From Candidatus Spongiisociaceae bacterium (GTDB taxonomy: Bacteria > Actinomycetota > Acidimicrobiia > Spongiisociales > Spongiisociaceae), in contig OZ253564.1 in assembly GCA_965262915.1 (NCBI GenBank), positions 2,624,001 through 2,688,000 on the forward strand: a stretch of DNA of 64,000 bases, written 5' to 3'. Positions 125 to 25,162 of this stretch are shown piece after piece. Made by a program: the position numbers and the translations under genes. How positions within the stretch are numbered: position 1 is the stretch's first letter; each line of letters starts with the position of its first letter. The notes below the pieces were generated by a model. It was not told where the DNA came from, did no database searches, and was given only the letters and a program-made list of their open reading frames with translations.

Positions 125-673
125 TCATGCTCCGGTCACCCAACTCTCCACCATCCGGTGCTGCGCCCCCGTCTGGGGCGTTGGCTTGTAGCCGCCCTTG
201 CGATCGCCCCGACGGCGAAGCGTGCGGAGCAGATCGATCACCTCATCCGGCGAGGCGTAGCCGTGTCTCCGGAGCCAGCAGCCCACCACCGTACCGGTCC
301 GCCCGCTTCCGCCCCAGCAATGCACGTAGACGTTGCACCCATGAGCGAGGTGGCGGTCGATCACGTCGAGGGTGGTAACCATCTCGGTCTCGGTCGTCAC
401 TCCGTTGTCCTCTATCTGGCGGCGTACCACGACCGCGTGACGATCGGTCGCGCGGATGTCGTAGCGGTCCATGTGTGCGTCGGTTCCGCCCGGATAGTCC
501 TGGGTCAGGTTGACGAACACGTTGATGTCGGCGTCCAGCAACTGGCCCGCCTTGTCGTTCCACGGAGCAGGGTTGGGATAGGCGCCCGCCGCCAAGCGTT
601 CGGGAATCACCCAGTAGGACCGATCGGTCGGGCCGCTCTCCGCGCTGCGCGCCAACGCGAGGTCCATGAACAT
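125..673 (-). CDS. protein-tyrosine/dual-specificity phosphatase family protein
   Basis: HCWGGSGRTG (CX5R) P-loop; C-terminal PQT..Q motif. Confidence 0.85.
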   Translation of the reverse strand: MFMDLALARSAESGPTDRSYWVIPERLAAGAYPNPAPWNDKAGQLLDADINVFVNLTQDYPGGTDAHMDRYDIRATDRHAVVVRRQIEDNGVTTETEMVTTLDVIDRHLAHGCNVYVHCWGGSGRTGTVVGCWLRRHGYASPDEVIDLLRTLRRRGDRKGGYKPTPQTGAQHRMVESWVTGA

Positions 674-713: not shown

Positions 714-1750
714 CTAGATGAGTAGTTCCAAGGGGTGTGGGTGGATAATCCACCGTTTTGGGGGTGGGGGTGTCCAGAATCCGGGGTGAAAAAACTTCCC
801 CGATCCCGGAGGACCTGGTATGAACCCGGACCTGGACACCCTCGCTACCACAGTATATGTGACGGTTGATGATCTGTTGATCCAGCATCCCGAGTGGGTG
901 CCCCAGCGACCCGCGGTGGGGATCGCTCCCAAGCTGTCCGACGCCGAGTTGGTCACCCTGGCGGTGATCCAGTCGCTGCTCAGATACACTTCCGAGGCCC
1001 GTTTCTTGCGCTACGCGCACGCCCATCTCAAACCATGGTTCCCGTATCTGCCTACCCGATCCGCCTACAACAGGCGGCTACGCCGCCTCGGCCTCACGAT
1101 GCAACACATCATCGCCTGGCTGGCCCGGGACTGCCCGTCGTGGCATGACGACCTGTGGTTGGTGGACTCCACGCCCGTCGAGTGCGGACGCAGCCGCACA
1201 ACCCAACAACGCTCTGACCTGGGGGGATGGGCCGAATACGGCTACTGCGCCTCCCACTCCCGCTACTTCTGGGGGCTGCGCTTCCACCTGGTGGCCACCC
1301 CATCGGGACTGCCGATAGCCTTCGCGTTGGCGCCGGCCAAAGCGGACGAACGCGACATCGCCACAGAAATGATCGCCCACGCCCGCCTAGCCCGAGCGGG
1401 CCAAACTCTCATGGCGGACAAAGGATACCGAAGCGCCAGCTTCGAGGAAGACCTCAACGAGGCCCACATGACCCTCATCCGCCCCGCCACAAAAACAGAA
1501 GCGCCCAGAAGCGGCCAGCGGTTCCTCCGACCCTTCCGCCACATCATCGAATCGATCTTCCAAACCTTCAAGGGCCAACTCGATCTCGAACGTCACGGCG
1601 GACGCACCAAACCGGGTGTTGTGGCACGTGTCCTCCAACCGATACTCGCCCTCACCACCGTCATCTGGCACAACGAAACCACCTAACGACCAGGCCCAGC
1701 ACGCTCCCTCATCGCATATGACCACTAAAACCTTGGAACTAACCATCTAG
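714..1750 (+). mobile_element. IS982-family insertion sequence
   Basis: Terminal inverted repeats CTAGATGAGTAGTTCCAAGG (714-733) vs revcomp of 1731-1750 CTAGATGGTTAGTTCCAAGG (18/20); CTAG at both ends; encloses a DDE transposase. Confidence 0.9.
820..1686 (+). CDS. IS982-family DDE transposase, slightly truncated by a premature TAA
   Basis: DLDTLAT..YV..DDLL start, VDSTP, ADKGY, R..IES motifs; frame continues after TAA as RPGPARSLIAYDH* to 1728. Confidence 0.88.
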   Translation: MNPDLDTLATTVYVTVDDLLIQHPEWVPQRPAVGIAPKLSDAELVTLAVIQSLLRYTSEARFLRYAHAHLKPWFPYLPTRSAYNRRLRRLGLTMQHIIAWLARDCPSWHDDLWLVDSTPVECGRSRTTQQRSDLGGWAEYGYCASHSRYFWGLRFHLVATPSGLPIAFALAPAKADERDIATEMIAHARLARAGQTLMADKGYRSASFEEDLNEAHMTLIRPATKTEAPRSGQRFLRPFRHIIESIFQTFKGQLDLERHGGRTKPGVVARVLQPILALTTVIWHNETT

Positions 1751-4563
1751 AGGACATCGCGGAGGAACTTGCCGGTGTAGGACTGCGGAACCTGCGCCAC
1801 CTGTTCGGGTGTTCCGATCGCGACTATGCGGCCTCCCTCGTCACCGCCTTCGGGTCCCATGTCGATGATCCAGTCGGCCGAGCGCACCACGTCGAGGTTG
1901 TGCTCGATGATGACCACGGTGTTGCCGCCGTCGACCAGGCGATGGAGGACCTCCAAGAGCTTGCGGGTGTCCTCGAAGTGGAGGCCGGTGGTGGGTTCGT
2001 CGAGGATGTACAGCGTGTTGCCCGTGGATCGTTTTCCCAGTTCGGATGAGAGTTTGACCCGCTGCGCCTCGCCGCCGGAGAGGGTGGGGGCCGGCTGGCC
2101 GAGGCGGATGTACCCGAGTCCCACGTCGTAGATGGTCTGGAGGATGCGGGCAATGGGCGGCTGCGCCTCGAAGAAGACCAAGGCCTCCGCAACGGACATG
2201 TCGAGTATGTCGGCGATCGATCGTCCCTTCCATCGCACCTCGAGCGTATCCCGGTTGTAGCGACGACCTTCGCATACTTCGCAGGGGACGTAGACATCGG
2301 GAAGGAAGTGCATCTCGATCTTGATGTTCCCGTCGCCCTTGCAGGCTTCGCAGCGGCCGCCGCGGACATTGAAGGAGAAGCGCCCCGGTAGGTAACCGCG
2401 GGCTCTGGACTCCGGAGTGGAGGCGAACAGCTTCCTGATCCGGTCGAACAGCTTCGTGTATGTGGCGGCATTCGACCGGGGAGTCCGACCGATCGGCGAC
2501 TGGTCGATATTGATCACCTTGTCCAGGTGCTCGGCGCCTTCGATACGGCGGTGATGCCCCGGGACCGCCCGCGAGCGGTACAGCCTGTGGTGGAGGGCCT
2601 TCGACAGGATCTCCTGCACCAGGGACGACTTGCCGCTCCCCGACACCCCGGTGACCGCGATGAACATGCCCAGCGGGAACTCGACATCGATCTGGCAGAG
2701 GTTGTTCGCGGCTGCGCCCACCACGGTCATTATGCGGCCGTCTCCCGGCCGGCGCCGGTCCGGTGTAGGGATCCTGCGGCGGCCGGCCAGGTAGTCGCCG
2801 GTGAAGGAGGTGGGTTCGGCGATGATCTCGGCAACACCTCCTTCCGCCACCACATGACCGCCTTGCTCGCCCGCCCCCGGTCCGAGATCCACGATGTAGT
2901 CCGCGGTACGGATGGTCTCCTCGTCGTGCTCGACCACGATCAGGGTGTTACCCAGATCCCGGAGGCGGAGCAGGGTCTCGAGGAGGCGGCGGTTGTCCCT
3001 CTGGTGCAGGCCGATCGACGGCTCGTCGAGCACGTACAGCACCCCGACCAGGCCCGAGCCGATCTGGGTGGCCAGACGGATTCGCTGGGCCTCTCCCCCC
3101 GACAGGGTGGCCGCTCCCCTGTACAGGGTCAGGTACTCGAGGCCCACATCGAGGAGGAACTGCAGCCGGGCCCGGATCTCCTTGAGCACCGGCGCCGCGA
3201 TCGTGGCATCCCGCCGGCCCATCTCAAGGGTGTCCAGGCTGTCGAGCGTGCCCCGGATGGAACGGCTGCACAACTCGAAGATGTTGAACTCCCCGACGGT
3301 CACCGACAGCGATACCGGATTCAGCCGCGCTCCCCCGCAGGTCGGGCACGGGATCTCCCGCATGTACTCCTCGTAGTAGCGCCGGGCCGATTCCGACTCG
3401 GTCTGGTCGTGGCGACGGCGCAGGACCCGGATCACCCCCTCGTAGGTCGCTTGGTACTGCCGCCTCCTGCCGAAACGGTTGGTGAACGACACCTGGATGG
3501 ACAGGTCCCCGGTCCCGTACAGCACCGCCCGGCGATGGTCCTCGGCCAGAGTGAAGAACGGTGCGTTCACATCGAAGCCGAGCTCGTTCGCCAGCCCTGC
3601 CAACAGGTGGTGGAAGTAACGGTTCCGGTTGCTCGACCAGGGGGCGACCGCGCCGGCGGCTATCGAGAGCTCGTCGTCGGGGATCACCAGCAGCGGATCG
3701 ACCTCGAACGTGGTGCCGATTCCCGAGCACGCCTTGCACGCTCCGTAGGGGCTGTTGAACGAGAAGGAGCGCGGCTCCAGCTCATCGAACGAGAGGCCGC
3801 ATTCGTTGCATGCCAGGTGCTGGCTGAAGGTCAGCTCGGGACCATCGATGATGTCCACCACCGCGATACCGCCGGTGAGGCCCAGTGCGGTCTCGAGCGA
3901 CTCGGTGAGCCGGCGGATGCCACCCCTACCGGCGACCAAGCGATCGACCACCACCTCGATGGTGTGGGTGTAGTAACGGTCGAGACGTATGCGGTCTGCC
4001 AGGTACATGATCTCGCCGTCCACCCTGGCCCGGCTGAAACCCTGGCGCGAGAGGTCCCGGAACAGTTCCTCGTACTCGCCCTTGCGTCCCCGGATCAGGG
4101 GAGCCAGCACCTGGAACCGGGTCCCCTCCTCCAACTCGGCGATCTGGTCGACGATCTGCTGGGGTGTCTGGCGCGCCACCATCCGCCCGCATTCGGGGCA
4201 GTGGGGCCGGCCGATGCGGGCGTAGAGCAGGCGCAGGTAGTCGTGGATCTCGGTGATGGTGCCGACTGTGGAGCGGGGGTTGCGGCTGGCCGTCTTCTGA
4301 TCGATGGAGATGGCGGGCGACAGCCCTTCGATGAAGTCCACATCGGGCTTGTGCATCTGGCCGAGAAACTGGCGGGCGTAGGCCGACAGGCTCTCCACGT
4401 ACCGGCGTTGCCCCTCCGCGTATATGGTGTCGAATGCGAGGCTGGACTTCCCGGAGCCGGACAGTCCGGTGAACACGATCAACCGGTCACGCGGGAGCTC
4501 GATGGAAATGTCCGCCAGGTTGTGCTCGCGCGCTCCGCGAACGGCCAGCTTGTCTCTCGTCAT
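1747..4563 (-). CDS. uvrA: excinuclease ABC subunit A
   Basis: Two ABC ATPase modules ([26 protein letters not shown] x2), CxxC zinc fingers; start at [16 protein letters not shown]. Confidence 0.98.
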
Positions 4564-4703
4564 AGTGCCCGGGTGTGTTGCTGTACGGGGAAGCAGGGGT
4601 GGTGGCACCATGGTAGTGGCGGTCGGCAGTTGCCAGTAGCCCGGTCACCCCGAGTCCCGACTTGCGGAAGCCGGATACGGGCTACCTGTACCATCGCCTG
4701 CTC

Positions 4704-7700
4704 ATGAGTCGGTTACCCGAGTACGTGGTCTTCGACCTGGAGACGAACGCCGACCGACCTGATCGGGCCGAGCACGAGATCATCCAGATCGGCGCCGTAG
4801 CCGCAGTCGGGAACGGCGAGGTGGATACGTTCGAGGCTCTGGTCCGGCCCCGGCGACCGCTGCCCGCCCGGATCACCGAGCTGACCGGGCTGGTGTACGG
4901 CGATCTGGCGGGCGCGCCGCCTCTCGGGCGCGTCCTGGGCGAGTTCTTCGAATGGCTCGGCGACCGGCCCCTGATCGCCCACAACGGGTTCGGCTACGAC
5001 TTCGTGGTTCTCGACGCTGCCGCGGCCGCGGAGGGGATCGTCGTGCCGGCCGGGGACCGGCTCGACACCTTGGAGTTGGCTCACCTCGTTCACCCCCGGG
5101 CCGGGTCCGGTATCCGCAGCGTGGACGGTGCCTCTCCTCCACCCGGACGCAGCCTCGACCACCTGGCGGCGGCCTACGATCTGGCCGGCCGGGACCGCCA
5201 CGACGCTCTGGTCGATTCCCGGATGACCCGGGCTGTCATGCTGGGCCTGCTCGAGGAACTGGATCGGGATTCGCCGGTGCGCCGCTTGCAGCGGTGGATC
5301 CTCGGCGTGTCCGCTCATCCGTGGGCGGGATTCGTGCAGCCGCAGTCCCGACCGCCGCCGCTCGCCGACGTGGTCCCCTCGGTTCCCGTTCCCGGACCGA
5401 TCGTCCCGACCGGCCGGTTCGACGCGGCTGCGATCGTGAGGGCATTCCGGTCGGGTGGTCGGTTGATGACCGGTGGCCGGACGCCCCGCGCCCAGCAGGC
5501 CGAGATGGCGATATCGGTGTGCAGAGCCTTCACCACCCGCGGTGGGCGTCGGATGATCGAAGCTCCCACCGGGACCGGCAAGACGCTGGCCTACCTGGTT
5601 CCCGCCATCGAGATGGCTCGGGCTTCGGGCCGCACCGCGGTGGTCACCCCACACTCGCGGGTACTGCAGGACCAGATCCTGACCACTCTGGAGCAACTCG
5701 AAACCGAGATCGGGCCCTTCACGAAGGTGGTGCTCAAGGGCAGGCAGAACTACATCAGCCTCAAGTCTCTCGATGCGGAACTCACCGGGATGGAGGAGGA
5801 ATCGGATCGCAGCCCGGTCCGCCATCCCACCGCCATGGCTCTGGCCATCCTGTGCGGATGGGTGGCCGAGACGCCCAGCGGCGACTGGGCGGACCTGCGA
5901 ACGAGGGCGCTGGAGGATCACCTGACTCCTCTGAGGTTCCTGCGGTGGAGGTTGCGAGTCGATACCCGGCCCGGGCCGGTGCGGGACCGCCTCGATGCGC
6001 TCGACTTCTACCGCCGCGCCTCGGGAACTCTGAGGACCGCCCACGTGGCCGTGCTGAACCATGCCCTCCTCGCCACGGGTCCGGAACTGGGGGAGGGATC
6101 CTTCAACCTGATCGTGGACGAGGCCCACGGGTTGGAGGACTCGGTCACCTCTGCGGCGACCCTCCAGGTGGAGGGAGAGCACCTAGAGAGGATATGCGAC
6201 GCTCTATGGGACCCGGAGACACGACGGGGTTTGGCGACGAGGCTGGCGGTTGCCATCGGGGTGGGTCTCCGGGACCGCAGGATCGATCGGATCCGCCGCG
6301 CCGGCGTCGAGGCCCGAGCGGCAATCAGGCGTTTCTCGGCGCCCCTGACGGAGTACGTGCGCGACCGGACCGGCGTGAGGCGGGAGGAAGCGGCGCGCTA
6401 CGGCTCCTCCTACCGGATCCGCCGGGGGGTCGACACCTACCACCCCTCGTACCGGACCGTTCTCGAAGCAGGCCGAGCCATGAGGCGCGCCCTCCGCGAG
6501 GTGACCGAGGCCCTTGACGCCATCAGCGTGCCGGAGCAACTCCACGGCCGGTACCGCCGCGACGCTCTGGAGGATGAATTGGCCCGGTTCGGCCGGGAGA
6601 TCTCCGACGCGGCCCTGCTGGTCCACTCCGTGCTCTCAGCCGCGGCCGACATGCGTCTCTTCGACGACGACCTGAGCGATCACCACTTGATCGACTGGAT
6701 CAACATCGCCGAGGTCTCCTTCGAAACGTTCGGGAGGGGACGCGACGGATTCGAGGCCGTTGGCGGGACCGCCGCGGAGGCCGGCCGCAGCGGGCAGGGA
6801 GAGTGGCGCTGGGCGCTACGGCGGGCTCCGCTGTCGGTGGCGGGCCTGCTGTCCGAACTGTGGGAAAGGAGCCACTCGGTGCTGCTCACCTCGGCCACGC
6901 TTCGGGCCGGTGACGACTTCGGTTACCTGGTCGGCCGCCTGGGACTCGGCTCGGTCGAGTCGAAGGTGATCGACACGCCGTTCGGGAATCTGCCCGAGAA
7001 CCATCTCCTCCTGCTGACCGACTACCTGCCCGCGCCACGGGGGCAGCTCATGGATCGGTTCACCGAGACCGAGGCCACCGAGATACCCAGGCTGTGCGTG
7101 GCGAGCGACGGCGGGGCACTTGTGCTCATGACGGCCCGGGCCCGGCTGGACTACGTGCGGGATCACGCCCGTGCCCATCTGGGGCCTCTCGAACTGGAGC
7201 TCATGGCCCAGGGAGACGGACCGTCGCCGGCTCTCGTGGAGCGGATGCGAAACGATCGGGACTCCTGCCTGCTCGGACTGCGGTCGTTCTGGGAGGGGAT
7301 CGATATCCCCGGCGACGCCCTGAGGTTGCTGGTGGTGGAGAAGGTTCCGTTCGATTCGATCGGCGATCCGGTGGTGGGTGCTCGCAGCGATCTGATCGAG
7401 ATGAGGGGACGGGACCCGTTTGCCGACTACATGGTCCCGCGGGCTGCCATCGCCTTCGCCCAAGGGGTGGGACGCCTGATCCGCACTGCCGACGACAAAG
7501 GCGTCACCGTCGTGCTGGACAGCCGCCTGCGCCGCCCCATCCCCTACCGCGACGTGCTGCTGCGCGGCCTGACCGGACCCCCATCCAAGCGGGAGATCGA
7601 CACTCCCGAGGCTGCCTACGACGCCATCACGGATCACCTGGGTCTCGACCTCGACCGGGTCCGGTGGGAGAGGATCCGCCGGATACCCGGGATCGAGACG

Positions 7701-9842
7701 TTGTCGCAGGCGGCCCTCGAGGTCGGTGACGATGGTTCCCCCGACCGCCCGGCCATCGCCCGGCGCTTGGAGAGGGCCCGGGAGTGGCTCGGTTTCGAGG
7801 AGTGGAGGCCGGGCCAGCACGAGGTGATGACCCGGTTCATGCGGGGCGAGGACGTGGTGGCGGTGCTGCCCACCGGGTTCGGCAAGTCGGTCACGTACCA
7901 GGTTCCGGCGCTGGTATCCCCCGGCGTGACGATGGTGGTGTCGCCGCTCATCGCCCTCATGCGGGATCAGGTCGACAACCTGCGGGCCCGAGGGGTCACC
8001 GAAGCGGCGGCCATCTACTCCGGAGTAGGCCAGGCGGAGCAGCAGGCGATCCTTGCCGGCGCGGCCGCCGGCCACATCAAGCTGTTGTACGTCAGCCCGG
8101 AGCGACTGTGGTCACCGGTGTTCCGCACCTGGTTGAAGGAGGTCGACGTGGCGCGGGTGGCGGTGGACGAGGCCCACTGCATCTCCCTGTGGGGCCACTC
8201 GTTCCGGCCGGAGTACGCCATGATCCCCCGTGCGGTTGCCGAGGTGACCGGCGCGAGGCTTCCCACCCTGGCGGTGACGGCCACCGCCACGAGCGAGGTT
8301 CTCGAGGACATCGCCGCCCTGCTCGACCTGCGGCCGTCGGGCCGACCGCTGGTCGGATCGGTCAACCGGCCCGAGATCCGCTACTACCTGGAGCGCTGCC
8401 GGAACCGCAAGGACCGTGATCTGCGCGTCATCCAGGTGGTGGAGGCCTTCCGCCGGCGGAGCGCCATCGTCTACGTGCCGACCCGCAGGGACACGACCCG
8501 CCTCTCCGGCCTGTTGCGCACCTTCGGCAACCGGGTGCGGCCCTACAACGGCGCTATGTGCTACACCGAGCGCCAGCACACCGAGGATGCGTTCCGCCAC
8601 GGCGAGATCGATGTGGTGGTGGCCACCAAGGCCTTCGGTCTGGGTATCGACAAACCGGACATCGCCCTGATCGTGCATCTGGAGATGCCCGCCTCCATCG
8701 AGGAGTACGTCCAGGAGACGGGACGGGTGGCCCGCGGTGCCCGCGACGGTACCGGACCGGACATCGGAACCGCCGTGCTGCTGGTGACTCCCAACGACTG
8801 CGGCATCCACGAGTTCTTCGCGCGCTCGGCGGTTCCCGAACTCGAGGACATCGAGCGAGAGTTGGCTCCGCTGGCGGTGGGGATGAACTACATCGACCCT
8901 GCCCGGCTCAGCCGCCGTCCCGGTACGGAGGACGCGGAGCCCGACCAGCTCCGGGTCCTGGCGCTGCACTATCTGGACCGGGTGGGGGTCCTGCGCCGGC
9001 ACCGAGACTTCGTGCTGCGGGGCCGCGTCGCGCCGGTGGAGGACACCGGGCGGCGCCTCGCGGATCTGCGGACCCGCGATCCCGAGTCGGCTCGGAAAGC
9101 CGACGATGTCCTACGCATCGTGGAAAGAGAGGGAGGCGAGTACCGCGGTCTCGACTGGAGTTCACGTCTCGGTATGTCGCCCGGCGAGATCGAGGCTGTC
9201 CTGTTCGACATGCAGAAACGTGACATCTGCTGGTTCAGTAGCTGGAAGTACGGGTGGGTCTTCGAGAGGATCGAGGGGGTCCGGCCCGACCGGCGCCATC
9301 TCGACCGCTTGATCCGGCGTCGCCGACGGTCGGTCGAGGACCGCGCCCGCCGGGCGCGGCGCCTGGCTCATGGGCGTCCCGACTGCCGTCGCCGGGAGAT
9401 GCTGCGGTACCTGGGCGAGTCCGATCCCTTCGAACGCGGCTACTCCTGCGGGGGTTGTGACGCCTGCACCCCGGAACTTCCCCGTCCCTGGGCGGGGACC
9501 GGGATCGGTGTCGAGCAGATGCGGGAGGCCGTCCACGAAGGAGCCGACGCCATCATCCTGGTGTTGATCGACGATGTCGAAGGTGGCCGGTGGTCGAGGC
9601 GCAACCTGGTGCGGACGCTGCGTGGGGAGGGCGGCGGTCTCCATCCCCTGCCCGAGCGCCTCCGGTTGCACAGCTGTTTCGACCGGCTGGGGCTGCTCGA
9701 CCCCGAAGAGGTGGAAGGGATGATCGACGGGATGATCAGGGACGGCTACCTCGAGGAGGTCCGGCCCGGGGGCCGGACCTACAAGACGCTCCGGCTCACC
9801 GATGACGGTCGTAGCCTCCTCCGGGGCCGCTACTCCCGGTAG
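4704..9842 (+). CDS. fusion protein: DEDDh 3'-5' exonuclease + DinG-family helicase + RecQ-family helicase with Zn-binding and RQC-like domain
   Basis: Exonuclease: FDLET, AHNGFGYD, HDALVD. DinG: EAPTGTGKT, KGRQNY, NHALL, DEAH, TSATL, FWEGID, QGVGRLIR. RecQ: LPTGFGKS, SPLIALMRDQV, DEAHCIS.WGHSFRPEY, QETGR, CRR..CGGCDAC. Confidence 0.9.
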   Translation: MSRLPEYVVFDLETNADRPDRAEHEIIQIGAVAAVGNGEVDTFEALVRPRRPLPARITELTGLVYGDLAGAPPLGRVLGEFFEWLGDRPLIAHNGFGYDFVVLDAAAAAEGIVVPAGDRLDTLELAHLVHPRAGSGIRSVDGASPPPGRSLDHLAAAYDLAGRDRHDALVDSRMTRAVMLGLLEELDRDSPVRRLQRWILGVSAHPWAGFVQPQSRPPPLADVVPSVPVPGPIVPTGRFDAAAIVRAFRSGGRLMTGGRTPRAQQAEMAISVCRAFTTRGGRRMIEAPTGTGKTLAYLVPAIEMARASGRTAVVTPHSRVLQDQILTTLEQLETEIGPFTKVVLKGRQNYISLKSLDAELTGMEEESDRSPVRHPTAMALAILCGWVAETPSGDWADLRTRALEDHLTPLRFLRWRLRVDTRPGPVRDRLDALDFYRRASGTLRTAHVAVLNHALLATGPELGEGSFNLIVDEAHGLEDSVTSAATLQVEGEHLERICDALWDPETRRGLATRLAVAIGVGLRDRRIDRIRRAGVEARAAIRRFSAPLTEYVRDRTGVRREEAARYGSSYRIRRGVDTYHPSYRTVLEAGRAMRRALREVTEALDAISVPEQLHGRYRRDALEDELARFGREISDAALLVHSVLSAAADMRLFDDDLSDHHLIDWINIAEVSFETFGRGRDGFEAVGGTAAEAGRSGQGEWRWALRRAPLSVAGLLSELWERSHSVLLTSATLRAGDDFGYLVGRLGLGSVESKVIDTPFGNLPENHLLLLTDYLPAPRGQLMDRFTETEATEIPRLCVASDGGALVLMTARARLDYVRDHARAHLGPLELELMAQGDGPSPALVERMRNDRDSCLLGLRSFWEGIDIPGDALRLLVVEKVPFDSIGDPVVGARSDLIEMRGRDPFADYMVPRAAIAFAQGVGRLIRTADDKGVTVVLDSRLRRPIPYRDVLLRGLTGPPSKREIDTPEAAYDAITDHLGLDLDRVRWERIRRIPGIETLSQAALEVGDDGSPDRPAIARRLERAREWLGFEEWRPGQHEVMTRFMRGEDVVAVLPTGFGKSVTYQVPALVSPGVTMVVSPLIALMRDQVDNLRARGVTEAAAIYSGVGQAEQQAILAGAAAGHIKLLYVSPERLWSPVFRTWLKEVDVARVAVDEAHCISLWGHSFRPEYAMIPRAVAEVTGARLPTLAVTATATSEVLEDIAALLDLRPSGRPLVGSVNRPEIRYYLERCRNRKDRDLRVIQVVEAFRRRSAIVYVPTRRDTTRLSGLLRTFGNRVRPYNGAMCYTERQHTEDAFRHGEIDVVVATKAFGLGIDKPDIALIVHLEMPASIEEYVQETGRVARGARDGTGPDIGTAVLLVTPNDCGIHEFFARSAVPELEDIERELAPLAVGMNYIDPARLSRRPGTEDAEPDQLRVLALHYLDRVGVLRRHRDFVLRGRVAPVEDTGRRLADLRTRDPESARKADDVLRIVEREGGEYRGLDWSSRLGMSPGEIEAVLFDMQKRDICWFSSWKYGWVFERIEGVRPDRRHLDRLIRRRRRSVEDRARRARRLAHGRPDCRRREMLRYLGESDPFERGYSCGGCDACTPELPRPWAGTGIGVEQMREAVHEGADAIILVLIDDVEGGRWSRRNLVRTLRGEGGGLHPLPERLRLHSCFDRLGLLDPEEVEGMIDGMIRDGYLEEVRPGGRTYKTLRLTDDGRSLLRGRYSR

Positions 9843-9855
9843 GAGCCGCCGCCTG

Positions 9856-10023
9856 TAGTGGTCTGTCTGCAAAACAACTTGCCGTGCTCTGGCAGCCATC
9901 GACGCCCCTCGCTGTGTTCCGCCTCCTCGATGTACCGCTGCGGGTACGCCTTCGTCGGCGGGCCTTGGGAGGAACGCCGCTGCCGGCGCATACCACCCCG
10001 CCGTCTCACGGACAGACCAGTAG
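9856..10023. mobile_element. MITE-like repeat, family A, copy 1 (168 bp)
   Basis: Terminal inverted repeats TAGTGGTCTGTCTG...CGGACAGACCAGTA; near-identical copy at 24995-25162; internal hairpin GTACC-GCTGCG-GGTAC. Confidence 0.85.
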
Positions 10024-10036
10024 TATTCGCAGGTCG

Positions 10037-11845
10037 ATGGCGTTCCTGACACCCGAGAACATCCCCAGCCGTTCCGGCGTGCCGGACCGGCTCCGACAGG
10101 TGGCACGGGCCTTGCGGGACTTCATGCCCTACGAGACGACGGTCTGGCTGGCGGAGAAGGAGGGGGGCGCCCCCTACCTGGAGGTGCTCGACCCCGCGGC
10201 GGGGATTGTCGTGATCGAGGCCCCGCCCATAAGGGTGGGTGGACGCCGGCGCCGCCGCCCGTGGCGCGCCTTCAGCGAGCAGGACATGGTCCGTATCCGG
10301 GATGACATGGCCGAGCGCGCCGAGGATCTGCGGAAGCGCATCGACCGGGCGCTGGTGAGGTCGCTACCCGTGAGGTGTGTCCTGGCTGCTCCGGACCATG
10401 ACGAGGTGCCTGTGAGCGCCCTCGATTCGGTGCAGGGCGATCTGCCGCTACTCACCCGGTCCGACATGACCGGGTCCCGTCTCCGGCCTGCCATCGGCCG
10501 CATCCTCGGCAGCCTGACGATGACCCCGCTGACCGAGCAGGAGGAGAACCGGGCCCGGGCGGTTATCAACCCCGAGATCGTTCTCGGCGCGACCGAGGGC
10601 TACGAGACCCTTCCACTGTTCCAGGATCCCGACATCGCGCCCGGGGACATCATCCGGGTGATGGACCGCGAACAGGAACGGGTGGCGGAGCATCTCGGGT
10701 GGGGGTACAGGATGTTGCGCGGCGTGGCAGGCAGCGGCAAGACGCTGGTGCTCACGCACCGGGTCCGCCATCTCCACCGGCTCTTCCCGAACTGGCGGAT
10801 CCTGTTGTTGTGTTACAACCGGTTGCTGGCGAACGCGCTGCAGATGATGGTGGACGAGAGCGACCGCGTGGATGTCACCAACATCGACCGCCTGGCCTAC
10901 CGGCTGGCCGGGCAGGAGAGCGGCCGTGGCCGGCCCGATTTCGAAGAGTTGAGAAAGCGGGCGGCGGTCAAGGCAGGCCGGCTGCCGGACTCCCGGCGCT
11001 ACGACGTGGTGCTGGTCGACGAGGCTCAGGATTTCGGCCGCCAAGGTCTCGAGCTCGCCTACGCGATGTTGAAGCCGTCGCGCCGGGATCTCGGTGCGGC
11101 CGGGCGTAACCTGCGGTCGTACCGGGCCGGACACTTCGTGATGGCCCTGGACAGCGCCCAGAACGTCTACAGGCGGAGCATGACGTGGAACCCCCCGGGA
11201 CTCACGGCTCGGGGACGCACGACGGTCTTCCGGCGCAACTACCGCAACACCCGGGAGATCCTGGAGCTCGCCTGGACCTTTCTCGAAGGATCGCCCGACC
11301 GCTCGCCGCCGGTCTCCGATGGGGGTGACTCCAAGGACCGTATCGAGCCGGAGGCGGCCCCCAGAAGCGGTCCGGTACCCCGACTGCTCGACTGCCGGGA
11401 CCTGCGGGGCGAGGCCGAAGCCATCGCCGCCGAGATCGGGCGCCTCACCACCGACGGAGTGGATGTCGGCGACATCGCCGTCATGTACGGCCACCGCGAG
11501 CTCGAGACGGAGCTGCAGAAGGCCTTCCGTCAGCGCCGTCTCCCCTACTTCCACATCCAGTACCAGGACCGTCGCGGCCGGAGGCCCAACCGGGACATAG
11601 CCATGGGTGTCCGGGACAAGGTGCGGGTCTCGACGCTCCAAGGTCTCAAGGGTCTCGAGTTCAGCCGGGTGTTCATCGGTGGGGTCAACCAGGCGTACGT
11701 CCACGACGTCGCCGAGGAGGACCAGCCGGTCGCCGTCAAGCAGCTTCTCTACGTGGCCATGACCAGGGCCATGGACAGACTCGTCATCACGATCTCGGGT
11801 GATGGGGAGTCGGGCCGGGCGCTCCGGAACGCCCAGTCGGGGTAG
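10037..11845 (+). CDS. SF1 (UvrD/Rep-like) helicase with degenerate N-terminal NERD-like domain
   Basis: GVAGSGKT, LVDEAQD, RNYRNT, KGLEF, LYVAMTRA; IIRVMDREQERVAEHLGWG typical of NERD-UvrD proteins. Confidence 0.85.
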   Translation: MAFLTPENIPSRSGVPDRLRQVARALRDFMPYETTVWLAEKEGGAPYLEVLDPAAGIVVIEAPPIRVGGRRRRRPWRAFSEQDMVRIRDDMAERAEDLRKRIDRALVRSLPVRCVLAAPDHDEVPVSALDSVQGDLPLLTRSDMTGSRLRPAIGRILGSLTMTPLTEQEENRARAVINPEIVLGATEGYETLPLFQDPDIAPGDIIRVMDREQERVAEHLGWGYRMLRGVAGSGKTLVLTHRVRHLHRLFPNWRILLLCYNRLLANALQMMVDESDRVDVTNIDRLAYRLAGQESGRGRPDFEELRKRAAVKAGRLPDSRRYDVVLVDEAQDFGRQGLELAYAMLKPSRRDLGAAGRNLRSYRAGHFVMALDSAQNVYRRSMTWNPPGLTARGRTTVFRRNYRNTREILELAWTFLEGSPDRSPPVSDGGDSKDRIEPEAAPRSGPVPRLLDCRDLRGEAEAIAAEIGRLTTDGVDVGDIAVMYGHRELETELQKAFRQRRLPYFHIQYQDRRGRRPNRDIAMGVRDKVRVSTLQGLKGLEFSRVFIGGVNQAYVHDVAEEDQPVAVKQLLYVAMTRAMDRLVITISGDGESGRALRNAQSG

Positions 11846-11929
11846 TGGTTGCTGGCTCGACTGCCGGGTTGGTGACATCGGCCTTCCCGGCTTGCAATTC
11901 TGTCAATAGTGGCTTATGTGAGATTGTGG

Positions 11930-11944
11930 TATACTGCGTGTATG
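11930..11944 (+). promoter_or_regulatory. -10 element of a probable leaderless TA operon promoter
   Basis: TATACT 6 nt before ATG at 11942, no Shine-Dalgarno. Confidence 0.55.
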
Positions 11945-12295
11945 GATAACTCGTCAAGTCTCGCTGCAACCCGCGCTCCGCCGGAGCGACCCAGCGAGCG
12001 GCCTCCGACTGATGATCGGGCCCCGGTAGATGCCGCGGAGGTCGCTGGAGGTGAGGACCGGGAGAGACCATTCCTCGTTATCGACATGTCCAAGATGGAT
12101 CCTGATATCAGGGCGTCGATCGTGGACGACTGCACGCCCCCGGAGGAGACACCCCAAGAGCGGGCGGAGCGCCTCGATCGGTGCAAGGCCGCCACCGCCG
12201 AGTACGACGCCGAGTTCGGTCCCCTGAAGCCCGAGGAGAAGGCTTGGGCGGACTCCGTCTTGGACGGGAGTGGCGACTGGATGGACGAGCCGTGA
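11942..12295 (+). CDS. putative antitoxin
   Basis: Acidic small protein, C-terminal AEYDAEFGPLKPEEKAWADSVL; GTGA overlap with the downstream PIN gene. Confidence 0.6.
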   Translation: MDNSSSLAATRAPPERPSERPPTDDRAPVDAAEVAGGEDRERPFLVIDMSKMDPDIRASIVDDCTPPEETPQERAERLDRCKAATAEYDAEFGPLKPEEKAWADSVLDGSGDWMDEP

Positions 12296-12672
12296 CATCG
12301 GGGATCACTTACGACACGGGCGCGCTGATCGCGGCCGAGCGAAAAGAGAAACGCGTCTGGCGGTTTCACAGGCGCCTGGTGGATCGGGGCATCGAACCGA
12401 CGGTACCCGCCGGTGTGCTCGCCCAGGCATGGCGGGGTGGATCCCGACAGTACTGGTTGACCAGGTTCCTTTCCGATTGCCGGATCGAAGCGCTGGACGA
12501 GTCCCTGGCTCGTGAGATAGGCGTCATCTGCCACCAGCACGGGGTGACCGACGTCGTGGACACATCCGTGGTGGCCGGCGCATCCCGCCGAGGGGATCAG
12601 GTCGTCACGCGTGACCGCCCGGATGTGGTCTCTCTCGCCAGGTCGATGGGAGTCTCGGTAAGTTACGGGTGA
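12292..12672 (+). CDS. PIN-domain (VapC-like) ribonuclease toxin
   Basis: YDTGALIAAER, VPAGVLAQAWR, DVVDTSVV, VVTRD motifs. Confidence 0.8.
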   Translation: MTSGITYDTGALIAAERKEKRVWRFHRRLVDRGIEPTVPAGVLAQAWRGGSRQYWLTRFLSDCRIEALDESLAREIGVICHQHGVTDVVDTSVVAGASRRGDQVVTRDRPDVVSLARSMGVSVSYG

Positions 12673-12932
12673 ACAATGGGCTGACCGGCGCGGCAAAACG
12701 GCCCACGCGGCTGCATTCCGAAGCGAGTGTTGATCAGAATCACCGTAGGCAGGCCTTCCATATCCCAGCCTGCCACCGCCACGATATCTTGTCTTCCATG
12801 GGTACCTTCTGTATCCACCCTGATGTTTGCGCGAAGCACTCGCTCGATGTCCTCTTCGGTTCTGTGTCTCAGGGTGGCGGGATGAGTATCCAGATATTGC
12901 CCTTGGAACCGGATAGGCAGGTAAAGCCCCGT

Positions 12933-13232
12933 TCAGGCACTTGCAACAGGCAACAGCGCTTCGATCCCGGACCGAACCTCCGGAGGCAGGCGAGACAGAA
13001 GAGACTCCTTATCGGGCCCTACTGCCATGGTGAGTATGTCAGCCGCCTCCTCCATTCCGACCTCGAGCAGATGGCTAACCTGCCGGTCGGTCTCCCACCG
13101 GGCGAAAATACCGAACGCCCATTCCCTTACCTGTTCCTCCAACTCAGGCCCGGCGGGAGTTCCCTTCCACCCCAGCCGCTGGTGAGGATCATCCAAGATC
13201 GCCACCATCTCATCAATACTCATATCTCTCAT
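12933..13232 (-). CDS. hypothetical protein
   Basis: 99-aa ORF MRDMSIDEMVAILDD..., protein-like composition; no family recognised. Confidence 0.45.
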   Translation of the reverse strand: MRDMSIDEMVAILDDPHQRLGWKGTPAGPELEEQVREWAFGIFARWETDRQVSHLLEVGMEEAADILTMAVGPDKESLLSRLPPEVRSGIEALLPVASA

Positions 13233-13423
13233 ACTCACGAGTCCACTTTCGTAGCCGCTCGTCCGGAGCGGAGGGTCGAAGGGCCGCGCCTGTCGTACAG
13301 CCCTTCCCGTGCCGGCACGGTTTTCTTGTCTCGACCGGATAGCCGAGTGACCGGTCGCGCGCCGGTGCGCCTCGGATCCGCCCCCGATCGGGATGGATCC
13401 CGCCGTGGATGCGGCGCAGGCTG

Positions 13424-13927
13424 ATGTCACCACGGCGGTGGTTGGTCGGGGTCGCCCTGGTCGTGGCCGGCTGTGCAACGTCGCTGCTCCCGAGTGACAC
13501 TTCCTCGGCCGACCCGACTACTCCCGGGCCGCTTCCGGCGACCGGCGCCGGGATGTCCGGAACGGGCCCGGCCTGGCCCGACTTCCGGTCGGCGGTAGAC
13601 GCTGTCGAGACCGAACTTGCTCGGCTCGGATACGAGAACCTCGGAGGCGATCACCCGGGTCCGACTTCCGTCGCCTTCCTGGTGGTCGGCTCGGACGGCG
13701 CGCCCGAGGTGGAGGTCGCGCTGGGTTGGTCCCAAGCTGCTCCCATGGGAGCCTTCAGCACCATCGTCAACACCGTCTCCGGGATGGACGGGATTCAGCG
13801 CGGGCCGGGCCGAGGCGGAGTGTGGTTCCTGTGCGGTCCGCTCTATGTCGAGATGCTCGCCGGGGACCTGCCGGACGCCGCGAGTCTCGCCGACCGGCTG
13901 ATAGACGAGATCTGCCGGCATGCCTGA
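13424..13927 (+). CDS. putative lipoprotein
   Basis: RRWLVGVALVVAG-C signal peptide and lipobox followed by a Pro/Thr linker. Confidence 0.6.
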   Translation: MSPRRWLVGVALVVAGCATSLLPSDTSSADPTTPGPLPATGAGMSGTGPAWPDFRSAVDAVETELARLGYENLGGDHPGPTSVAFLVVGSDGAPEVEVALGWSQAAPMGAFSTIVNTVSGMDGIQRGPGRGGVWFLCGPLYVEMLAGDLPDAASLADRLIDEICRHA

Positions 13928-14054
13928 CCGCCACCGGTCGTCATCGGACGCGGCGCCGGAACGGATGGAGACGCCCCGGCGGGAGACCGACGCGGCGTCG
14001 GCCATGGTCGTGAAGGCTGTCCGGGTAGGGAGGAGAGTCCGGGGAAATCCACCA

Positions 14055-14081
14055 GCGGCCTGTCGCTTGGCAACAGGCCGC
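14055..14081. terminator. GC-rich hairpin between convergent genes
   Basis: GCGGCCTGT...ACAGGCCGC 9-bp perfect stem; no U-tract. Confidence 0.4.
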
Positions 14082-14153
14082 CAGACAATCCGGCGAGGGA
14101 CTCGTGGCAATCGCCGTTGTCGAGCACCCTCCTGGCTGTCAGCTGGGCTGGAA

Positions 14154-17201: not shown

Positions 17202-19214
17202 TCAACGGGTGGCCTCGGCCACTTCTCGCATCTCCCTCCTCAATTCGGCTACCTCATCCCGGAGCCGGGCGGCGTACTCGAAACGGAGTTCCCGGGCGGC
17301 CTCTCGCATCTCGTCCTCGAGGCTCTGTATGAGGCGTCCCAGGTCCTCACCCGCCAGCTCGATGGGCGCCCGGACCTCCATGTCGGGACGGCGCCTCCTC
17401 CGGCCGGACGTCTTCCCCGAAGAGACCAGCTCGAGGATGTCGGCCACCTTCTTGCGGATCGTCTGGGGATCGATCCCGTGCGCTGCGTTGTGCTGAATCT
17501 GCCGGCTCCGGCGCCGGTTGGTCTCCCCGATGGCCGCTCCCATCGAGGCGGTCACCTCATCGGCGTACATGATCACCCGACCGGACACGTTGCGGGCGGC
17601 CCGGCCGATTATCTGGATGAGGCTGGTCTCGGACCGGAGGAATCCTTCCTTGTCGGCGTCGAGGATGGCCACCAGGGACACTTCCGGGAGGTCGAGGCCT
17701 TCCCGCAGCAGGTTGATGCCCACCAGCACGTCGTACTCCCCCAGGCGCAGGTCCCGCAGCAGCTCTATCCGCTCCAGGGTGTCGATCTCCGAGTGCAGGT
17801 ACCGGGCCCGCACCCCCATCTCCAGCAGGTAGTCAGTCAGGTCCTCCGACATCTTCTTGGTAAGGGTCGTGACCAGCACCCGCTCGTCGACAATGGCTTG
17901 GGCACGGATCTCCTCCAGGAGATCGTCGATCTGACCCTTGGCGGGACGCACCACCACCTCGGGATCCACCAGCCCGGTCGGCCGGACGATCTGCTCGACG
18001 ATGTTGGCGGATTGGCGGCGCTCGAACGGGCTGGGGGTGGCCGAGGAGAAGACGACCTGGCCGGTCTTCTCCAACCACTCGTCGAAGCGCAGGGGACGGT
18101 TGTCGACCGCCGACGGCAGGCGAAAACCGTGCTCGACCAGTACGTCCTTGCGGCTCCGGTCGGCCTCGTACTGCCCGTGGAGTTGCGGTATGGCCACATG
18201 GCTCTCGTCGATGATGGTGATGAAGTCGTCGGGGAAGTAGTCGAGCAGTGTGTAGGGGGCTTCTCCGGGGGCCCGACCGTCTATATGCCGGCTGTAGTTC
18301 TCGATCCCGGAACAGAAACCGATCTCTCGGATCATCTCCATATCGTAGGTGGTGCGCATCCGGAGGCGCTGGGCCTCGAGCAGTTTCCCCTGCCGCTCGA
18401 GCTCGGACAGCCGCTCTGCCAGCTCCAGCTCGATCTGCACCAAGGCCCGTTCCATCCGTTCCCGGGTGACGGCGTAATGGGAGGCGGGATAGACCCAGAG
18501 CTCCTTCAATTCCTCGATGATCTCGCCGGTTACCGGGTTCATGCGCACTATGCGCTCCACCTCGTCGCCGAAGTATTCCACCCGGGCGATGGTCTCCTCG
18601 TAGGCGGGGAAGACCTCCAGGGTGTCACCCCGAACCCGGAACCGACCCCGTACGAGGTTCACCTCGTTGCGTTCGTACTGGATGTTGACCAGCCGCCGGA
18701 TCGCTTCGTGGAGCGGGTACTCCACCCCTCTGACCAGCCGGAGGACCTGCCCGGCGTACTCCTCCGGACTGCCCAGCCCGTAGATGCAGGACACGCTGGC
18801 GACGATCACCACGTCGTCCCGGAACAGCAGCGACGACGTGGCGGCGTGCCGCAACCGATCGATCTCGTCGTTGATGGTGGCGTCCTTCTCGATATACGTG
18901 TCGGTGTGGGGGATGTACGCCTCGGGCTGGTAGTAGTCGTAGTAAGACACGAAGTACTCGACCCGGTTCTCGGGGAAGAACTGGCGGAACTCCGAGGCCA
19001 GCTGGGCGGCCAGGGCCTTGTTGGGGGCTATGACGAGGGCCGGACGCTGGGTGCCCTCGATCGCCCAGGCAATGGTGGCCGACTTTCCCGATCCGGTGAT
19101 GCCGAGCAGGGTCTGGAAGTGATCCCCTCGCTCCACCCCTTCCACCAGGGATTCGATTGCGGCAGGCTGGTCTCCCGCCGGCCGGAACTCGGAGTGCACA
19201 CGAAACTCGGCCAT
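17202..19214 (-). CDS. uvrB: excinuclease ABC subunit B
   Basis: [33 protein letters not shown]-terminal UVR domain. Confidence 0.98.
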
Positions 19215-24994: not shown

Positions 24995-25162
24995 TGGTAG
25001 TCTGTCTGCAAAATAACCTGGCGTGTTCTGCTTGCCATCGACGCTCCTCGCGGTGTTCCGCCTCCTCGACGTACCGCTGCGGGTACGCCTTCGTCGGCGG
25101 GCCTTGCGAGCAACGCCGCTGCCGGCGCATACCACGCGGCCGTCTCACAGACAGACCACTAG
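24995..25162. mobile_element. MITE-like repeat, family A, copy 2 (168 bp)
   Basis: Same length as and closely similar to 9856-10023; ends TGGTAGTCTGTCTG...CAGACAGACCACTAG. Confidence 0.85.

Follow-up and report, generated by a model that had tools for sequence, protein, structure and literature searches.

A fused exonuclease–DinG–RecQ gene and its downstream helicase partner in a Candidatus Spongiisociaceae bacterium

The DNA stretch considered here (the window; 64,000 nucleotides (nt) of contig OZ253564.1) belongs to the complete, 5.06 Mb genome of a Candidatus Spongiisociaceae bacterium and carries, on its forward strand, a gene of unusual composition at 4704..9842, in which a 3'-5' exonuclease, a DinG-type helicase, and a RecQ-type helicase are fused into one chain. 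It is followed at 10037..11845 by a gene for a superfamily 1 (SF1) helicase of 602 amino acids (aa), in the following termed the partner. The two almost certainly form a genuine, selected cassette, composed of an exonuclease-DinG (ExoDinG) without iron–sulfur (Fe-S) site that is extended by a RecQ-type helicase, and of a UvrD/Schlafen-like SF1 helicase with an N-terminal NERD-like fold that has apparently lost catalysis.

The fused gene encodes 1712 aa plus stop and contains no stop inside the frame, which bears out what an earlier, sequence-only reading of the window had stated. An alternative TTG start at 4662 would give the longest frame, 1726 aa, and a database gene call of that length (P0002) is 99% identical to the fused protein. 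The chain begins with a DEDDh 3'-5' exonuclease domain (residues 8-178, 4725..5237; Pfam RNase_T, E 7.9e-20), followed by a DinG-type superfamily 2 (SF2) helicase module (residues 256-960, 5469..7583) with Walker A motif at 288-294, DEAH box at 472-475, and Pfam matches to ResIII (261-336) and Helicase_C_2 (796-945, E 6.3e-35). A weakly conserved linker (residues 961-1022, 7584..7769; no Pfam match for residues 946-1029) leads over to the RecQ-type SF2 core (residues 1023-1377, 7770..8834), which has its own Walker A motif (1056-1062) and DEAH box (1155-1158) and matches Pfam DEAD (1035-1201, E 2.4e-35) and Helicase_C (1245-1344). Before the zinc module, the RecQ helicase lobe is followed by an insert of about 150 aa (residues 1378-1528, 8835..9287) that matches no Pfam family above threshold. 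The zinc-binding module itself (residues 1529-1589, 9288..9470; Pfam RecQ_Zn_bind, E 2.5e-6) contributes C1561, C1582, C1585, and C1588, and the chain ends with a winged-helix-like tail (residues 1590-1712, 9471..9839). The Pfam scan of the fused protein found no HRDC, no ComF/phosphoribosyltransferase-like, and no RNA-binding domain. These boundaries agree with those proposed by the sequence-only reading within a few tens of bases; its "RQC-like" label for the tail has little sequence evidence behind it, with Pfam RQC remaining below cut-off (E 0.0018), and finds some backing in the modeled fold.

Motif conservation was assessed in an alignment of 112 full-length homologs of 1640-1870 aa, after nine of 121 sequences shorter than 1640 aa had been dropped. 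In the exonuclease domain, D11 and E13 are kept in 111 of the 112 sequences and D99, H166, and D171 in all of them. The DinG module retains K293, the DEAH box 472-475, and the QGxGRLIR motif in 112/112, and the RecQ module K1061 (112/112), DEAH 1155-1158 (111-112/112), and QETGR (112/112), as well as all four zinc cysteines throughout (112/112). The intact ExoI/II/III residues, the full DinG motif set, the full RecQ core with two Walker A/DEAH pairs, and the cysteine cluster that had been noticed in the letters alone are thus all upheld. Given this invariance of the exonuclease site and of the two ATP sites, all three activities are expected to be in use. The stretch between Walker A and DEAH of the DinG module (residues 295-471) holds a single cysteine, C384, and hence the module lacks the four-cysteine Fe-S site.

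An AlphaFold2 model of residues 1000-1712 reached a predicted local distance difference test score (pLDDT) of 89.5 and a predicted template modeling score (pTM) of 0.88. The insert is modeled as helices plus two long beta-hairpins, with pLDDT blocks mostly of 90 or more except around residues 1400-1420, and is read as winged-helix-like on the basis of this model; the C-terminus likewise appears as a helix/strand, winged-helix-like unit. Foldseek matched the modeled RecQ module to 6crm (E 5e-33), to RecQ catalytic cores (TMt 0.66-0.70), and to human RECQL4 (TMq 0.58).

The joint between the two helicases, the place at which the sequence-only reading had advised looking for a stop or a misassembly, shows neither. 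Single contigs from four runs of four studies, one of which may be the source sample, cross the DinG/RecQ junction at 7539-7790 (X5, 7004-8185; X6 and X7, 6435-8185; X10, 6435-7874), and no indels are listed for them.

Alignment, together with an identical 602-aa gene call in the database (P0270), fixed the start of the partner gene. Its core (residues ~210-602) matches Pfam UvrD_C, AAA_19, and UvrD-helicase, and 76 sequences show little or no variation in the motifs GSGKT, VDEAQD, NYRNT, KGLE, and MTRA; in Foldseek, the AlphaFold2 model (pLDDT 76.8) retrieved SLFN11, UvrD, and PcrA at about 1e-17. The N-terminal domain (residues ~1-200) has no Pfam NERD match even at an E-value of 10. Its 200 residues are nevertheless modeled as an alpha-beta-beta-beta-alpha-beta fold and align with the Pfam-positive NERD-UvrD gene of a distant genome (G336), and 29 of 30 hits in a language-model Atlas search were NERD clusters (score 0.92), which we take as a lead only. 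At the NERD D..ExK positions, tyrosine stands in place of the aspartate and a nearly invariant proline (P63) in place of the lysine. As judged from these replacements, the NERD-like nuclease of the partner is probably dead.

The partner follows the fused gene directly in 17 of 17 cassettes, that is, in all eight of clade A (the window included), all eight of clade B (one of these partners being frameshifted), and the distant genome G336; a metagenomic locus (L215) shows the same order. In 15 other loci, the spacing of the two genes ranges from a 29-nt overlap to 98 nt, and translational coupling is likely given that the genes sit so close. The wider gap of 194 nt in the host genome is due to the insertion of a dispersed repeat resembling a miniature inverted-repeat transposable element (MITE) between the two genes (9856..10024). 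This element is about 170 nt long, has terminal inverted repeats of about 12 nt whose arms pair in the predicted fold, and recurs elsewhere in the host genome in at least 43 near-full copies of 87-96% identity (40 of 145 candidates scored). Read depth over it was 935-1751 as compared to roughly 7-110 in other bins (four runs), and in some contigs, 9873-9978 is replaced by 36 different letters. A second MITE-like copy lies in the window at 24997-25124.

Clades A and B share 51% identity in the fused gene and 44% in the partner. Pairwise identities of the two genes are correlated (r = 0.97 over 120 pairs, with related genomes not independent of each other); what counts, however, is that the pair was duplicated as a unit. 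The host genome has a second, intact fused copy (1673 aa, 50-54% identity) with an identical set of Pfam domains. Coupling of the two genes is restricted to this subfamily: at greater distance, fused genes are followed by other genes, and a metagenome scan with the partner alignment found a fused gene upstream only at L215, while at least seven partner-like homologs of full length (25-34% identity) have none in the 2-7 kb of sequence available upstream of each. The idea that the partner family is always coupled to the fusion was therefore rejected. A hidden Markov model of the partner had no match among 150 cluster representatives and none among 112 close homologs of the fused protein, so that the partner is never fused to the first gene in these sets. 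A complex prediction for the RecQ module (residues 1000-1712) with partner residues 1-215 scored 0.00 and, having been run without controls, is used neither for nor against an interaction. The fused gene of G336 has, divergently upstream, another UvrD-like gene (L121:12811-14535) whose Pfam NERD domain is intact (E 1.6e-11), so that this cassette is flanked by two NERD/SF1 genes.

Within the family of the host, 17 of 24 other genomes contain a full-length fused gene, and in four of the seven that lack it, DinG is present as a separate protein of about 660-700 aa; elsewhere in the order, the fusion is missing from all 16 genomes sampled in other families. Four unpublished genomes (G028, G039, G834, G969) enter such tallies only, as lacking the fused form. 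A word-indexed search retrieved 120 clusters, most of 1650-1860 aa and with the same domain set, which are called "RecQ family ATP-dependent DNA helicase" where a name is given at all; one comes from Candidatus Poriferisocius, a genus of the Acidimicrobiia. In an exhaustive search with residues 241-1440, for which the best 150 representatives of 50%-identity clusters were considered and counts are accordingly minimum values, at least 106 of these had a DinG C-lobe followed by a RecQ core. Among them, 80 are at least 1500 aa long, of which 64 have a recognizable exonuclease domain and 77 two Walker A motifs. The phylum of a Chloroflexaceae metagenome-assembled genome (301 genomes) yielded six junction-spanning matches, four of them in frames of 1809-1869 aa. 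A scan of genome contigs was dominated by ordinary RecQ and gives no taxon count; L018, L019, and L020 were the fused forms among the 80 loci kept.

How the fusion may have arisen can be sketched from its unfused relatives. Standalone RecQ proteins of 709-726 aa from another Actinomycetota family (L207, L208, L209; genomes G770, G605, G710) align with residues 1023-1619, and in the one at L208 (718 aa), Helicase_C and the zinc module are about 175 aa apart and an HRDC domain is present; proteins of this type are a likely source of the RecQ module. Plain DinG proteins of 656 and 660 aa, without exonuclease domain, occur in G035 (L295:6154-9408) and G008 (L296), in each case adjoining a probable DEAD-box helicase gene. 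In G035, dinG is followed after 57 nt, in the same frame, by this helicase gene (408 aa); a pre-fusion RecQ was considered for the latter and rejected, as Pfam scores and length speak for the DEAD-box type. Since a DEAD-box helicase gene adjoins not only the standalone dinG of G035 and G008 but also the fused gene of G019 and G021, there is a hint that the fusion arose at the old dinG locus.

In the window, the cassette lies between uvrA (1747-4611) and uvrB (17202-19214), both on the minus strand, and the same holds for two close kin (G002 and G007). Further upstream of the cassette are genes for a DDE transposase (820-1686, plus strand) and a PTP-SAK-type phosphatase (125-673, minus strand). 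The GC content at third codon positions (GC3) of the fused gene is 0.86, equal to that of uvrA, and thus native. Clade B adjoins the same 2-hydroxyacid dehydrogenase gene in genomes of four genera, and clade A has a downstream synteny common to two genera. Overall, cassette flanks are dominated by dehydrogenases, monooxygenases, transporters, and peptidases, the commonest among 149 flanking open reading frames (ORFs) of the 17 cassettes being short-chain dehydrogenases/reductases (13), 2-hydroxyacid dehydrogenases (5), luciferase-like proteins (5), and ABC transporters (5).

The component families are known, whereas their combination is undescribed in the literature found. Among the papers listed by full-text literature searches, none describes an exonuclease–DinG–RecQ fusion, in keeping with the earlier statement that no characterized protein of this architecture was known; the supplementary tables of a 2025 DinG review (PMC11981726) and the data files and figures of the Tiamat preprint discussed below may list the family. 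The main text of that review distinguishes ten bacterial DinG-like subgroups plus "others", none of them with a second helicase, and does not contain the word "RecQ".

The closest counterpart of the N-terminal half is ExoDinG, as represented by the DinG proteins of B. subtilis and S. aureus, with which it shares the N-terminal DEDDh exonuclease and the DinG/XPD-type SF2 core; the structure 8zef ("3'-5' exonuclease DinG") in the PDB is matched at 2.8e-29. The cysteine-poor pseudo-Fe-S region resembles that of Bacillales ExoDinG as portrayed in the main text of the review (PMC11981726). In contrast to ExoDinG, however, the fused protein remains below the cut-offs of PRK08074 (369 vs. 789 bits) and TIGR01407 (327.5 vs. 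547.7 bits), extends for another 750 residues into a complete RecQ-type helicase where ExoDinG ends at about 900 aa, and has an SF1 helicase gene coupled to it. In comparison with CasDinG, the typeIV_DinG profile covers residues 260-956, and there is no CRISPR gene at the locus.

The C-terminal half shares with bacterial RecQ the tetracysteine zinc module, passes TIGR00614 (289.7 bits, cut-off 219.8), and matches the RecQ cores of C. sakazakii and E. coli in the PDB at 1e-74 and 1e-70, but differs in falling short of the TIGR01389 equivalog (356.1 vs. 640.2 bits) and in lacking HRDC. Long-linker relatives are RqlH and the INS-bearing RecQ of actinobacteria. The order of its parts, with a linker between the ATPase and the tetracysteine zinc module, is that of RqlH as described (PMC3378886); there, the linker measures 88 aa as compared to about 150 aa here. 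RqlH furthermore has a ComF/phosphoribosyltransferase-like C-terminal domain that the fused protein lacks, and unlike in either RecQ or RqlH, the module is fused downstream of an ExoDinG.

Beyond bacteria, human WRN likewise has its RecQ core and a 3'-5' exonuclease on a single polypeptide, and its PDB entry ("Bifunctional 3'-5' exonuclease/ATP-dependent helicase WRN") is matched over the core at E 2.8e-45. It has, however, no DinG motor between exonuclease and RecQ and carries other accessory domains, so that this is an analogy that implies no orthology. FANCJ, a member of the DinG/XPD helicase family, works together with BLM, which is a RecQ helicase. Their pairing resembles the fusion by analogy only as well, these being separate eukaryotic proteins without orthology to it.

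With regard to function, genome maintenance, in which the cassette would serve as a helicase-exonuclease and represent the DinG-family enzyme of the lineage upgraded by fusion, is the explanation that we put first, and there is about as much reason to believe it as to doubt it. According to published work, B. subtilis ExoDinG degrades single-stranded DNA in 3'-5' direction as well as the RNA strand of R-loops and hybrids, DinG is described as a 5'-3' helicase, and RqlH-type RecQ-like helicases translocate 3'-5', as reported for M. smegmatis (PMC3378886). The opposite polarity of the two motors in the fused protein is extrapolated from such relatives. In the mechanism that we infer, the RecQ module would engage 3'-tailed or branched DNA, such as stalled forks, G-quadruplexes, or R-loops in this very GC-rich genome, and unwind it 3'-5', while the DinG module might hold or track the complementary strand, or else an RNA:DNA hybrid. 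Degradation of the freed 3' end of DNA or RNA could then fall to the N-terminal exonuclease, as in B. subtilis DinG. The SF1 partner would presumably act as a third motor on the same substrate, with its dead NERD fold as a possible docking domain for DNA or protein.

A point in favor of this maintenance role is that the fused gene is the DinG of the lineage: Helicase_C_2 matches in the host genome are confined to the two fused paralogs. Further points in its favor, all detailed above, are the standalone DinG in four family genomes without the fusion, the DEAD-box neighbors shared by dinG and the fused gene, the metabolic flanks, the synteny of both clades across genera, the native composition, and the position between uvrA and uvrB here and in two close kin. 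Maintenance is placed ahead of defense because the long syntenic, vertical inheritance and the pattern of DinG replacement slightly outweigh the evidence from distant relatives.

A number of observations nonetheless weigh against a housekeeping function. The distribution is patchy, as in one genus three of eight genomes are devoid both of the fusion and of any DinG, a scan of 401 genomes of the class found the fusion in this family and two others only (G336 at 42% and G217 at 34% identity), besides one genus with ExoDinG alone (~1000 aa), and a scan of 401 genomes of the phylum found no further fused form, the counts of these two long-query scans being minimum values, given their stricter first look. 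The uvrA/uvrB neighborhood is conserved no further than G002 and G007, for which reason uvrA was rejected as a functional neighbor, the clade-A cassette occupies different loci within one genus, and a transposase gene and a MITE are present at this locus. Likewise, LexA, Cheo-box, and PafBC-type motifs gave only scattered matches with two to three mismatches in the 300 nt upstream of the 17 fused genes, and SOS or PafBC control was rejected for lack of a consistent motif. Finally, S. aureus ExoDinG, which also lacks Fe-S, has exonuclease but no helicase activity according to the main text of the DinG review (PMC11981726), and therefore the fused DinG motor may not unwind either, although the same text credits Fe-S-less CasDinG with unwinding.

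The most serious competitor, tentative in our judgment but well ahead of the remaining ones, is an anti-phage or anti-plasmid module whose motors would survey or unwind foreign DNA with free ends or in replication, while the DEDDh exonuclease destroys exposed 3' strands. An elaboration of it, likewise only a possibility, has the NERD-like SF1 helicase as sensor or loader and the copies within the family as a stably inherited defense system. Patchy presence and the occurrence of two divergent copies in some genomes fit this picture, and if the enzyme is bipolar, a 3' strand degraded 3'-5' would be lost as a substrate for recombination instead of being made ready for it.

The main argument, which at the same time counts against maintenance, comes from seven distant loci with homologs of 29-40% identity, six of which look defense-like (L214 was listed by ORFs only and left without annotation). 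At L210 and L211, the fused homolog is preceded by type I HsdR and HsdM genes and followed by genes of no known kind (511 and 389 aa). At L212 (12142-18669), L213 (1058-7906, minus strand), and L020 (6418-12114), giant SACS proteins of 2175-2282 aa or more, one of them with DUF3684, are encoded directly after the fused homolog and resemble Tiamat; these loci belong to the phylum of the Chloroflexaceae genome. The sixth, L122 (G217:C36, 104-19499; another family of the same class), looks like a defense island: a ResIII helicase (896 aa), an N6_N4 methylase (887 aa), and two small ORFs precede the fused gene (1759 aa), whose stop codon is overlapped by an SNF2-domain giant of more than 2589 aa. 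A 2026 preprint presents SACS/DUF3684 giants as relatives of the antiphage protein Tiamat, names helicases, often fused to nucleases, as the commonest Tiamat neighbors, and reports NERD-helicases to be enriched in defense islands and a NERD-helicase as the predicted partner of one Tiamat type. It also mentions nuclease-helicase neighbors of the "Hrq1" type, which may or may not belong to the present family. The likeness to our cassette lies in the NERD-like N-terminal domain of its partner and in the SACS/DUF3684 giants that follow distant fused homologs, the difference to genuine NERD-helicases in the tyrosine and proline at the catalytic D..ExK positions. PADLOC, too, matched the fused protein to DpdF (3.9e-114), typeIV_DinG (5.3e-94), and PsyrT (3.5e-87), and the partner to "NERD+UvrD" (4.9e-44), all at the domain level.

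These PADLOC matches, however, concern generic helicase cores and no whole system, and what distinguishes the locus from known anti-phage systems is that it has neither a whole-system gene set nor a defense context, which is met only at the distant homologs. Among the leading hits, no restriction, methylase, toxin-antitoxin, or Tiamat-like gene occurs within ~6.5 kb of the 17 family cassettes, no CRISPR or restriction-modification gene was found at this locus or beside these cassettes, and PADLOC returned only generic ATPase/helicase matches and two SoFic matches for the flanks. SACS had no match above cut-off in the host genome. The stable synteny over four genera and the native composition argue against a defense function as well, as does the survey of viral contigs, where none of the best 80 of 146 relatives spans both helicases; a phage origin of the fusion was rejected on the same basis. 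A short viral contig (L170) has a RecQ-module-like piece at its edge.

An equally tentative, more far-reaching view is that of a three-motor machine of a new kind, in which a 5'-3' DinG and a 3'-5' RecQ on opposite strands would feed the exonuclease while the SF1 helicase, with its dead nuclease fold, docks. Such a machine might be a covalent counterpart of FANCJ, BLM, and WRN, and its relatives may repeatedly have been recruited as the unwinding arm of Tiamat-like or restriction immunity.

The sequence-only reading had seen in the two motors and the nuclease a reminiscence of RecBCD-type bipolar end processing in an undescribed repair or anti-phage machine. While repair and anti-phage activity are still the correct pair of alternatives, the RecBCD analogy has turned out weak. 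RecBCD has two motors of opposite polarity, and it shares with AddAB, AdnAB, and the cassette the combination of several motors and a nuclease. Those systems, however, employ SF1 motors and a RecB-family PD-(D/E)xK nuclease rather than two SF2 motors, a DEDDh exonuclease, and a degenerate NERD fold. Resection of double-strand breaks, with RecQ moving 3'-5' and DinG 5'-3' on opposite strands and the nuclease trimming, is therefore improbable, even though two SF2 cores of opposite canonical polarity with conserved ATP sites share a chain with a nuclease, a third motor of the SF1 type is encoded next door, and RecJ (TIGR00644) has no match in the host genome. The only intact nuclease is of the 3'-5' DEDDh type and would strip the very 3' tail needed by RecA, no RecB-type nuclease is present in the cassette, the NERD-like fold having lost the Asp and Lys of D..ExK, and the polarity of Fe-S-less ExoDinG is unproven as far as the main text of the review goes (PMC11981726). 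In addition, the host genome already has an AdnAB-like pair, i.e., two adjacent large frames each with a PDDEXK_1 domain, as well as a RecC-like gene. These genes were absent from the sequence-only reading, as were the Fe-S-less nature of the DinG module, the RecQ insert, the downstream SF1 gene, and the paralogous cassette.

More doubtful still is an RNA-directed role, be it quality control of ribosomal or structured RNA or purely the removal of R-loop RNA. A Listeria study ascribes the removal of unprocessed rRNA to the DinG exonuclease and reports its genetic interaction with a DEAD-box helicase, to which the degradation of hybrid RNA by B. subtilis DinG and the DEAD-box genes beside dinG or the fused gene in four genomes (see above) may be added. 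The RecQ-family core and the zinc and winged-helix modules are, however, features of DNA helicases, the DEAD-box neighbor is missing from most cassettes, and, as mentioned, the protein has no RNA-binding domain recognized by Pfam. Lastly, an artefact by misassembly or by a frameshift-joined gene pair is practically out of the question. A weak joint that skips 7353-10317 in one contig in each of three runs, with only 20 letters on its shorter side, was set aside as unreliable. Speaking against an artefact are the contigs that bridge the junction without listed indels (four runs, four studies), over 100 independent homologs of full length and the same architecture from complete genomes and metagenome assemblies, and the likewise fused paralog in the same genome.

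In eukaryotes, the cooperation of 5'-3' and 3'-5' helicases is studied with the separate proteins FANCJ, BLM, and WRN. Here, two SF2 helicase families of opposite canonical polarity are joined to an exonuclease in one chain, with a third, SF1 helicase gene locked to it, and if both motors are active, the protein would be a compact natural model of such cooperation on forks, G-quadruplexes, R-loops, and DNA ends. It also bears on a question named in the main text of the 2025 DinG review (PMC11981726), namely the purpose of the ATPase in Fe-S-less ExoDinG proteins. With 80 or more long clusters at 50% identity among the best 150, the family is large; it spans two phyla and goes by no annotation other than "RecQ family helicase". 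As its distant members adjoin Tiamat-like and restriction genes, it may link repair helicases to immunity.

Several minor observations concern the surroundings and individual copies. In the window, the 2.2 kb between the partner and the next conserved gene (~11900-14150) have no counterpart at the syntenic locus in the closest relative (L106), and the ORFs therein have a low GC3 of 0.67-0.80 and match neither Pfam nor PADLOC. Broken copies comprise the G004 partner (L114), which occupies two frames, the fused gene of clade B in G001 (G001:C133:25708-30682), split into 516 + 1225 aa, and the Chloroflexaceae fused gene (L020:1171-6524), split inside the DinG module into 822 + 941 aa; these are either frameshifts or errors of draft assemblies. 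The host genome furthermore encodes a third giant multi-helicase protein of 1787 aa (G000:C1:4727649-4733012; L205:2650-8013, minus strand), which joins a RecQ-like SF2 core (residues 313-638; identity to the RecQ module, 34%) with a UvrD-like SF1 helicase (residues 1126-1605) and may have a degenerate exonuclease-like N-terminus. It was considered as a Rosetta stone for the partner and rejected, since it matches only the generic SF1 core and not the N-terminal domain of the latter. Frames of 1784-1841 aa with the same RecQ match as this giant occur in G005, G006, G019, G021, and G022.

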